Source: Escherichia coli
GTDB taxonomy: Bacteria > Pseudomonadota > Gammaproteobacteria > Enterobacterales > Enterobacteriaceae
NCBI RefSeq assembly: GCF_003334315.1
Contig: NZ_QOWR01000090.1
DNA length: 9,349 nucleotides
Reading direction: 5' to 3' (one strand)
Shown here piece after piece: positions 76 to 607 of this stretch; the first letter of the stretch is position 1; each line of letters begins with the position of its first letter. Both the position numbers and the translations under genes were made by a program. Under the pieces are notes generated by a model. It saw only the letters and a program-made list of their open reading frames with translations, did no database searches and had not been told where the DNA came from.

Positions 76-607
76 CATTGGTCAGCCAGCAGGCACGACA
101 CCGGAAGCCGATTCAGCGTATGCGCTGAAAGCCGATTCGGGCGCTGTGCAGCAGGTGATGACCGCAAGGGCGGAGCAATCACACCAACTGCAGCAGCCTG
201 AAGCCGATTCCGCCATTCAGCGGGAAGCCGATCGGGTAGTCCCGGAAAACACCGGGCAGTCTGTGGGACGAGTGGATTATCCGGATGTGTTCGAACAGGT
301 CTGGCGGGAGTACCCGTTGCGTGCTGGGGCAAACCCGAAGAAATCCGCTTTCAGTGCCTGGAAGGCCAGATTACGCGAGGGGGTGCCACCAGAGGCCATG
401 CTGGATGGCGTGAGGCGTTACGCAAGATACTTGGCGGCTACCGGGAAAACGGGAACGGAATTTGTTCAGCGAGCGACGACGTTTTTTGGACCGGACCGGA
501 ATTTTGAGAACCCCTGGTTGCTCCCGGTAAGCGGCACGAACAACCAGCGTTGTGTGAATCATATTTCTGAACCGGATAACGAAATTCCGCCGGGCTTCAG
601 GGGGTAA
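50..607 (+). CDS. Phage/plasmid replication-associated protein (conserved phage C-terminal domain, replisome-organiser-like)
   Basis: 185-codon ORF with GTG start at 50 preceded by GGTGGAG SD-like sequence (37-43). C-terminal half has the F-x2-W-x2-YP...AW...FF-PD..F-NPW pattern that I recall from phage replication-protein C-terminal domains (Phg_2220_C/DnaD-like), recalled from memory, not searched. N-terminal third is built on DNA repeats (EADSA/KADSG/EADSA peptide repeats). Confidence 0.55.
   Translation: MDHFSSVVDIGQPAGTTPEADSAYALKADSGAVQQVMTARAEQSHQLQQPEADSAIQREADRVVPENTGQSVGRVDYPDVFEQVWREYPLRAGANPKKSAFSAWKARLREGVPPEAMLDGVRRYARYLAATGKTGTEFVQRATTFFGPDRNFENPWLLPVSGTNNQRCVNHISEPDNEIPPGFRG
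98..235. repeat. Four copies of an 11-bp motif GAAGCCGATTC (approx. 101-111, 127-137, 199-209, 225-235) inside the 5' part of the replication-protein gene; iteron-like
   Basis: Direct reading: cGGAAGCCGATTCa, tGAAAGCCGATTCg, tGAAGCCGATTCc, gGGAAGCCGATCGg; spacing about 26, 72 and 26 bp. Iteron interpretation is inference. Confidence 0.55.

Follow-up and report, generated by a model that had tools for sequence, protein, structure and literature searches.

In bacteriophage lambda the replication origin lies inside gene O and is built of iterons and an AT-rich region, and in the O protein DNA is bound by the N-terminal domain and P by the C-terminal one. In the case of the replisome organizers of the SPP1 G38P type the origin is also found within the organizer gene. 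The stretch of DNA studied here, 9,349 nucleotides of an Escherichia coli contig (NZ_QOWR01000090.1, assembly GCF_003334315.1) and referred to over its whole length as the window, has near its left end an open reading frame (ORF) with four short direct repeats, which a preliminary description had interpreted as iterons of an origin embedded in a phage-type replication gene. It is found that this ORF contains the 3' half of a prophage replication-initiator gene into which the insertion sequence IS100 has been inserted. Very probably, the repeats are in-frame repeats coding for a peptide linker, rather than initiator binding sites, and the probable origin has been cut away by IS100.

The intact form of this gene has much in common with the lambda system. 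It follows cro/cII-type genes in the early right operon, its product has two domains joined by a flexible linker, its N- and C-terminal modules are swapped between phages, and its probable origin is internal to the coding sequence, where the N-terminal domain ends, and is made up of direct repeats and then an AT-rich tract. There are also clear differences: no sequence match between lambda O and the intact protein is found; the lambda iterons are 19-bp dyad-symmetric sites, whereas the probable sites in this family are 6-bp GTCACG hexamers at one-turn spacing; the GAAGCCGAT repeats of the window, downstream of the AT-rich tract, fall where the linker is encoded and are not iteron-like; and the next gene is DUF977/Ren-like and not P. 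When compared with the SPP1 G38P type (PF09681), the architecture is the same and the annotation "phage replisome organizer" (NCBI, GenBank) is shared, but the full-length Pfam alignment is weak: residues 5-122 of the intact protein align with positions 1-118 of the 121 of the Phage_rep_org_N model with a nonsignificant E value of 0.24. Likewise, comparison of an AlphaFold2 model of the intact protein with the PDB by Foldseek gives nothing significant, the weak matches being winged-helix regulators (best E 0.69).

For the Rac prophage of E. coli K-12, an active origin, oriJ, has been reported (PMC3945230). The prophage type and the gene order (intR-xisR-recET-kilR-sieB ... ydaS/ydaT-like genes, then the initiator) are the same as for the locus described here; the window locus differs from Rac in having a cargo island and the IS100 disruption.

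IS100 insertion in a prophage replication-initiator gene

Positions 1-77 of the window are identical (77/77) to thousands of IS100 copies of E. coli chromosomes and plasmids, up to the terminal base of the element; this segment overlaps the 3' end of istB, and the rest of IS100 lies beyond the window. The homology with the initiator gene begins precisely at base 78. Positions 78-607 are 100% identical to positions 9001-9530 of the prophage locus of E. coli CP53 (L001), where the intact gene (1071 bp, 356 codons) covers positions 8460-9530, and base 78, corresponding to L001 9001, is within codon 181. IS100 is inserted at codon 181 of a gene coding for a prophage replication initiator of 356 residues. 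The complete two-domain gene is not present in the window because IS100 replaces everything upstream of this codon, and what remains is a dead pseudogene remnant, the 3' half only. The features of this region are as follows.

1-77, + strand: right (istB-proximal) end of IS100 (IS21 family), ending ...GTTGACA at base 77, 77/77 identity
78-607, + strand: pseudogene remnant, the 3' fragment (codons 181-356 and stop) of a lambdoid/Rac-like prophage replication-initiator (replisome-organizer) gene
78-268, + strand: distal linker coding sequence, residues 181-244, GC 0.58-0.65, assigned from the predicted local distance difference test (pLDDT) score, composition and codon-position pattern
104-114, + strand: repeat copy 1, GAAGCCGATTC, E190-A-D-S, codon phase 0
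128-138, + strand: repeat copy 2, AAAGCCGATTC, K-A-D-S
200-210, + strand: repeat copy 3, GAAGCCGATTC, E-A-D-S
224-234, + strand: repeat copy 4, GAAGCCGATCG, E-A-D-R
241-256, no strand: short palindrome CCCGG-N6-CCGGG, with which the repeat-bearing unit ends, kept with other loops in 75/02-type copies
269-535, + strand: predicted C-terminal helical domain, residues 245-333, pLDDT 86-94, matching phrog_1701, phrog_270, phrog_26426 and phrog_9327
536-604, + strand: C-terminal tail, residues 334-356, ending ...ISEPDNEIPPGFRG, DnaT-like by NCBIfam and PDB sequence matches

The 185-aa ORF at positions 50-607, in whose 5' coding region the repeats had been placed, is a chimera. Its GTG start at position 50 is supplied by IS100, and its first nine codons and one further base come from the IS100 end; these nine codons are in frame with the last 176 codons of the initiator gene, which creates a false ORF. 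In the intact 356-aa protein the repeats correspond to residues 189-233 and are in the middle of the chain. ORF calls adjoining the ends of insertion sequences can be chimeric. The junction between IS100 and the gene, as seen in the window, is absent from all 5426 complete E. coli genomes searched, of which 1647 have the intact gene (at least 80% coverage).

By its protein family the intact gene is classed as a phage replication initiator, its product, WP_001262352.1, matching phrog_3729 "replication initiation protein" over residues 1-356 (E 2e-257). The C-terminal half also matches replication PHROGs, annotated as a DnaD-like helicase loader, replication initiation proteins and a primosomal protein. 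This is in agreement with the proposal of the preliminary description that the gene is of a phage replication type and that its C-terminal domain resembles those of phage replication proteins. The Pfam check that had been suggested for the 185-aa protein detects no significant domain, either in this ORF or in the intact protein; the assignment to a replication family is obtained with PHROG when the intact protein is used. Annotators have named the gene "phage replisome organizer", "DNA replication protein O" or "hypothetical protein". The CP53 locus is a Rac-like lambdoid prophage with intR, xisR, ralR, recT, recE, kilR, sieB, a repressor, a Cro-like regulator, a YdaT-family gene, the initiator and a DUF977 gene, downstream of which there is a cargo island and then hokD and nin-region genes. 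The order of regulator (cro/YdaS), YdaT-family gene, initiator and DUF977 gene is found in four E. coli genomes.

In the AlphaFold2 model of the intact initiator, built on a 15-sequence alignment, an N-terminal helical domain is predicted as blocks over residues 11-80 (pLDDT 75-94), followed by a basic helix at residues 110-126. The C-terminal helical domain covers residues ~245-333 (pLDDT 84-94). Between them, residues 130-243 form a linker of ~114 residues with a pLDDT of 32-41, as against 83-94 for the flanking domains, and in this model the window repeats encode the middle of the predicted disordered linker. Such a layout would place DNA binding in the N-terminal domain and a DnaD-like recruitment function in the C-terminal one.

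The window repeats and their variation

The 8-mer core AAGCCGAT is present in four exact copies, at window positions 105, 129, 201 and 225, within 128 bp. In the 9.3-kb window 0.43 copies are expected and no further copy is found; none of 200 shuffles gives four or more. The 11-mer GAAGCCGATTC is exact at 104-114 and 200-210 only, as positions 128-138 (AAAGCCGATTC) have one mismatch and positions 224-234 (GAAGCCGATCG) have two. The four direct repeats previously described at 98-235 are real and far above chance, therefore, when the core is considered, and the length of 11 bp does not hold for all four copies. They are arranged as two 36-nt units (101-136 and 197-232, 75% identity), with a spacing of 24/72/24 between the four copies, all in codon phase 0, and they are translated in the ORF as PEADSA / LKADSG / PEADSA / READRV, which confirms the EADSA-type peptide noted before.

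It is proposed that the GAAGCCGAT(TC) copies are in-frame duplications, in which a 24-nt register is nested in a 96-nt register, and that the disordered linker of the two-domain initiator thus contains a repeated (P)EADS(A) peptide. Slippage or unequal recombination most likely gave rise to the repeats, whose copy number would still be shifting in the same way, and their function, if any, is probably that of a flexible acidic spacer. The insertion of IS100 has parted the 3' half of the gene from its N-terminal domain and from its probable origin (five GTCACG hexamers followed by GATAAAGATACAGATAAAGATACAGATCAAGAAGATCAAAAC). The evidence for this consists of the IS100 junction, the identity of the gene, the reading frame, the variation in copy number, the absence of extra conservation of the repeats, their association with one module and the predicted disorder.

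The copy number of the window-type repeats varies between three and five in intact alleles of at least 92% identity. Five copies are present in L069, through a 24-nt duplication of copy 4, the last copy being GAAGCTGAT. Three copies are found in L189 and in the O157 strain Anguil (24-nt deletion) and in the 75/02-type alleles (21-nt deletion, with GAAGCAGAT as copy 1), such that the 21- or 24-nt in-frame deletions of the 75/02-type, O157 and L189 alleles remove copy 1 or 2. In L208 a 9-nt deletion removes copy 4, and copy 3 is GAAACCGAT. Every indel that changes the copy number (24, 21 or 9 nt) is in frame. In phage 75/02 the DNA near copy 4 is kept with a shifted reading frame (GKPIGLTRAMPGPSAG in place of READRVVPENTGQSVG), which returns to the original one before the C-terminal domain, and therefore the peptide is dispensable at this point.

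The cores of the repeats are not better conserved than the sequence around them. Variable sites are found at 7 of the 36 core positions and at 42 of the 152 positions of the rest of the linker (Fisher p=0.40; 51 CP53-type linker alleles, a small and partly biased sample). The comparison of copy number and conservation across homologues, as had been suggested, shows repeats that vary in the way of a protein linker and not in the way of an array of binding sites. In the linker, 11 variable sites are at codon position 3 and 16 at positions 1 or 2, as against 45:16 in the folded domains (p=0.004, 58 alleles), a near-random pattern that shows relaxed protein constraint. In-frame periodicity, one-unit slippage-type indels, predicted disorder and relaxed amino-acid constraint are all as in repeats of disordered linkers, the only oddity being the extra copies of a repeat-bearing unit upstream of the gene in 75/02-type phages.

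It is unlikely that the repeats are instead kept as short linear motifs, (P)EADS, that bind a helicase, a loader or a host protein, with the copy number tuning avidity; we know of no such partner. Copies 1 and 3 do encode the same hexapeptide PEADSA despite three synonymous differences (CCG/CCT, TCA/TCC, GCG/GCC), the region is predicted to be disordered, and 4 of 10 core substitutions are synonymous (GCA, GCT, GAC, GAG), whereas ~18% are expected by our own calculation; this excess hints at weak protein-level selection at most. In apparently intact genes, however, nonsynonymous core changes, lost copies and the frame-shifted copy 4 are observed, the codon-position pattern of the linker is near-neutral, and the motif is absent from homologues of the C-terminal domain in other genera.

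The association of the repeats with one part of the protein is seen from natural mosaics of the initiator gene, found by megablast searches of E. coli genomes. Some alleles, of O157:H7 and others, share only gene positions 476-1069, which code for the linker and the C-terminal domain, and have another N-terminal domain; other alleles share only positions 1-458, with the N-terminal domain, the GTCACG array and the AT-rich tract, and have a different C-terminal part. The mosaic junction is at gene positions ~458-476 (L001 8917-8935), in the AT-rich tract, just upstream of the point corresponding to window base 78. In O157, in a fly strain and in 75/02 the repeats accompany an unrelated N-terminal domain, such that the window repeats occur with two unrelated N-terminal domains, and they are absent from E. 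coli NCTC86 and Pseudomonas phage phi1, which have the CP53-type N-terminal domain and other C-terminal parts. The repeats therefore belong to the C-terminal module, whichever DNA-binding domain is attached to it. At the mosaic junction there is another repeat, GATAAAGATACA (TDKD), whose copy number also differs between alleles.

More distant relatives were collected by scanning an alignment of the C-terminal domain against 100,044 species genomes. The 14 loci found were used for the combinations of N- and C-terminal domains and not for repeat evolution. The homologues are from Enterobacterales (Serratia, Kosakonia, Citrobacter, Raoultella and Enterobacter among them) and Paraburkholderia, and the C-terminal domain is common to initiators with at least five different N-terminal domains. 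In two of the 14 loci the match extends into the linker: L208, a 95% copy, retains the repeats in reduced form, and L219 has a linker without EADS repeats. No EADS repeats are found in the homologues of the other genera, each of which has its own linker, several with repeats of their own. Outside E. coli and Shigella the C-terminal domain is kept, but the window-type linker is not. An exact-pattern scan of viral contigs for CAGCCTGAAGCCGAT gives only the two known contexts and chance matches.

Given these data, it is very improbable that the four 11-bp repeats are initiator-bound iterons forming a prophage origin, or part of one, in the way of the lambda origin in O. The GAAGCCGAT repeats are indeed four clustered direct repeats far above chance, they sit inside a genuine replication-initiator gene, the 24-bp spacing within each pair is of the order of that of the lambda iterons, and GAAGCCGATTC is a weak palindrome (GAA-N5-TTC). 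But the repeats are always in frame, with three to five copies in intact alleles and a spacing that follows the reading frame and not the DNA geometry; their cores are not kept better than their flanks; and they do not co-vary with the DNA-binding domain. The AT-rich unwinding element that was expected next to them is not there, as the repeats are in the most GC-rich part of the locus (GC 0.58-0.65 over L001 8980-9340), and the only AT-rich tract (GC 0.35) is ~80-130 bp upstream of copy 1 and abuts the GTCACG array. DnaA boxes (TTATCCACA, with up to one mismatch), also expected nearby, are found neither in window 1-1400 nor in L001 7600-10400. In addition, the N-terminal domain is entirely missing from the window, and the separate array upstream shows the comparative features of iterons. 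Of five testable iteron features four are lacking in the window repeats, and all are present in the GTCACG array.

Several observations weigh against the interpretation as linker repeats. The synonymous positions of the 9-nt core (GAA GCC GAT) are the same in all four window copies, and the 24-bp spacing, taken by itself, is compatible with lambda-like iterons. Few alleles were sampled, some of them chosen for an intact copy 3, and the GTCACG and window arrays have been compared at the level of sequence only. The per-site variability of the linker, 0.108, is below that of the third codon positions of the flanking domains, and therefore the linker is under some constraint and is not wholly free to vary. 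Finally, the two extra upstream copies of the unit in 75/02-type Stx phages are not predicted by a purely neutral linker.

If the repeats are linker repeats, as seems very probable, they mark neither an active nor a cryptic origin in the window. The degenerate replicon that had been suspected at the left edge of the window does exist, in the form of a disrupted prophage gene, but not with these repeats as its origin. Window 78-607 should not support replication, because IS100 has cut off the probable origin and the DNA-binding domain. The window repeat itself is nothing new: it is a genuine repeat, located in a gene fragment, and its explanation is mundane. Before in-frame repeats in the linkers of initiators are taken for iterons, their frame, co-variation and conservation should be checked.

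The GTCACG array upstream of the insertion point

In intact alleles an array reading GTCACGGCGC GTCACGAAAT GTCACGCACAT GTCACGACGA GTCACG is found 134-180 bp upstream of the IS100 insertion point; it was not visible to the preliminary description because it lies outside the window. In CP53 it consists of five GTCACG hexamers with a spacing of 10-11 bp (L001 8848-8894), directly followed by the AT-rich tract ACAGATAAAGATACAGATAAAGATACAGATCAAGAAGATCAAAAC (the tract after the array in intact copies is also given as GATAAAGATACAGATAAAGATACAGATCAAGAAGATCAAAAC), which is the most AT-rich stretch of the gene (GC 0.35). A second cluster, with three exact hexamers and one GTCACA, is located within the coding sequence of the N-terminal domain (L001 8588-8624). 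Because of the 10-11 bp spacing, the hexamers occupy codon phases 0, 1 and 2, being read as SR, VT and xH. Among 58 distinct alleles, 1 of 30 hexamer positions is variable, as against 6 of 17 spacer positions (Fisher p=0.006).

The array is inherited together with the N-terminal domain. In Pseudomonas phage phi1 the similarity is limited to the N-terminal 138 residues (69.5% identity) and the C-terminal part is a different one; both clusters are kept, with four hexamers each at 10-11 bp spacing, as well as the tract ATAAAGATACAGA. NCTC86 has the same N-terminal module, a different C-terminal part and then a gene for replication protein P; it keeps five hexamers, with different spacers, and the ATAAAGATACAGA tract. 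In its first cluster (L224 ~1329-1390) a 21-nt insertion adds GTCACG/GTCAC copies and seven residues to the N-terminal domain, and in NCTC86 the number of repeats seems to be favoured even where the protein changes. Distant relatives of the N-terminal domain show an identical layout with other phased short repeats, CGAACGC in five copies in a Manatee Spring phage and GCAACG in five copies in the Ralstonia phage Firinga, with a purine-rich tract after the repeats in both. The unrelated N-terminal domain of the O157 type has two and three copies of AGGGGCTT at 11-bp spacing in the two corresponding positions.

The GTCACG array combines phased repeats, an AT-rich tract, independence of the reading frame, conservation of the cores and co-inheritance with the N-terminal domain, and is thus marked by several independent observations as an element at the level of DNA. 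This is the pattern expected of iterons with an unwinding element, and the array and the AT-rich tract are probably the origin of this initiator family. The idea that the origin is inside the initiator gene fits the family, but with the GTCACG array in this role and not the window repeats. A literature search on the GTCACG array and oriJ found nothing that maps this origin. The candidate origin is a modest by-product of the analysis and is open to direct test; it is a clear candidate for a prophage initiator family that is widespread in E. coli (intact in 1647 of 5426 complete genomes).

The 75/02-type unit, the C-terminal tail and neighbouring genes

In the Shigella phage 75/02 Stx and in POCJ13, PhiR5_2 and phiSTEC1589-Stx1c the GAAGCCGAT core is part of a unit of 55-70 nt that is present three times and reads CAACACCAACCGCAGCAGCCTGAAGCCGAT-TGGGTTAACCC-GGAGATACCGGGACCGTCTG. 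In 75/02 the unit contains the GAAGCCGAT core, the GGGTTAACCC palindrome and CCCGG-N5-6-CCGGG, and its copies are located as follows.

L002 ~807-875: unit copy in 75/02 Stx
L002 ~897-966: unit copy in 75/02 Stx
L002 1652-1744: unit copy in 75/02 Stx

Two of the copies are upstream of the initiator gene, 90 bp apart, where they make up most of a 72-aa ORF (phrog_2751) between cII and the initiator; the third is in the linker. The copies differ from each other by frame-shifting indels. Upstream copies are absent from the CP53-type, O157-type and NCTC86 loci; being confined to the 75/02 lineage, they look like a lineage-specific partial duplication.

These copies, the only observation that still speaks for a role of the unit at the level of DNA, bear on another explanation, in which the C-terminal module would have a DNA element that includes the window repeats, a ~60-nt unit (CAGCAGCCTGAAGCCGAT ... 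CCCGG-N5-6-CCGGG ... GTCTG) acting as an accessory origin site, as a site bound by a factor of the host or the phage or as a preferred recombination joint. The unit occurs three times in 75/02 Stx and its relatives, twice upstream of the initiator gene, its copies are read in different frames such that the DNA similarity outlasts the peptide similarity, and the CCCGG...CCGGG palindrome is kept with varying loops. This explanation is nevertheless quite improbable: the restriction of the upstream copies to the 75/02 lineage fits a one-off partial duplication, the GGGTTAACCC palindrome is degenerate in the window, the cores show no excess conservation, and the linker is not conserved beyond E. 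coli and Shigella. It is also very unlikely that the unit, with its GAAGCCGAT core and palindrome, is a site for helicase loading or for an accessory protein downstream of the unwinding tract. In that case the unit would travel with the C-terminal module between phages and would have been triplicated in the 75/02-type Stx phages.

The 75/02-type candidate iteron GAAGCCCCTTC is identical to GAAGCCGATTC at 9 of 11 positions, and this relation is treated as a coincidence.

The C-terminal tail of the initiator, ...ISEPDNEIPPGFRG, resembles the C-terminus of the host primosomal/replication-restart protein DnaT. Residues 333-356 match NCBIfam NF002770 (DnaT) with an E value of 7e-4, far under the family cut-off, and in a sequence search of the PDB only this short DnaT-like tail is matched (6aep, 2ru8 and 9zbt, E 0.003-0.07). 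From this similarity, the tail may be a mimic of a host primosome contact. The ending PPGFRG/PAGFRG is retained in the initiators of phage 75/02 and of cdtI; the Enterobacterales homologues from the genome scan have other C-terminal endings.

Downstream of the initiator remnant, at window 648-1070, is the gene for a DUF977 / Ren-like exclusion protein (phrog_142, E 5e-45), at the place where lambda has P, and next to the initiator prophages of this type lack a helicase loader gene of their own. An 18-nt inverted repeat (GGCACGAACAACCAGCGT / ACGCTGGTAATTCGTGCC, window 533-550 and 1161-1178, 89% complementary) flanks a segment made up of the end of the initiator gene and the complete DUF977 gene. 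Window 1405-7661 is a cargo island within the prophage, between the replication genes and hokD; following the annotation of the identical CP53 locus, its genes code for a BCCT-family transporter, a DUF2254 membrane protein, a LysR regulator, a gamma-glutamylcyclotransferase and an MFS transporter. Further downstream, the sok antitoxin RNA found with Rfam (RF01794, 116 bits) overlaps the hokD toxin ORF (window 8213-8387 (+) and 8325-8537 (+)), and therefore a complete hok/sok-type module is present.

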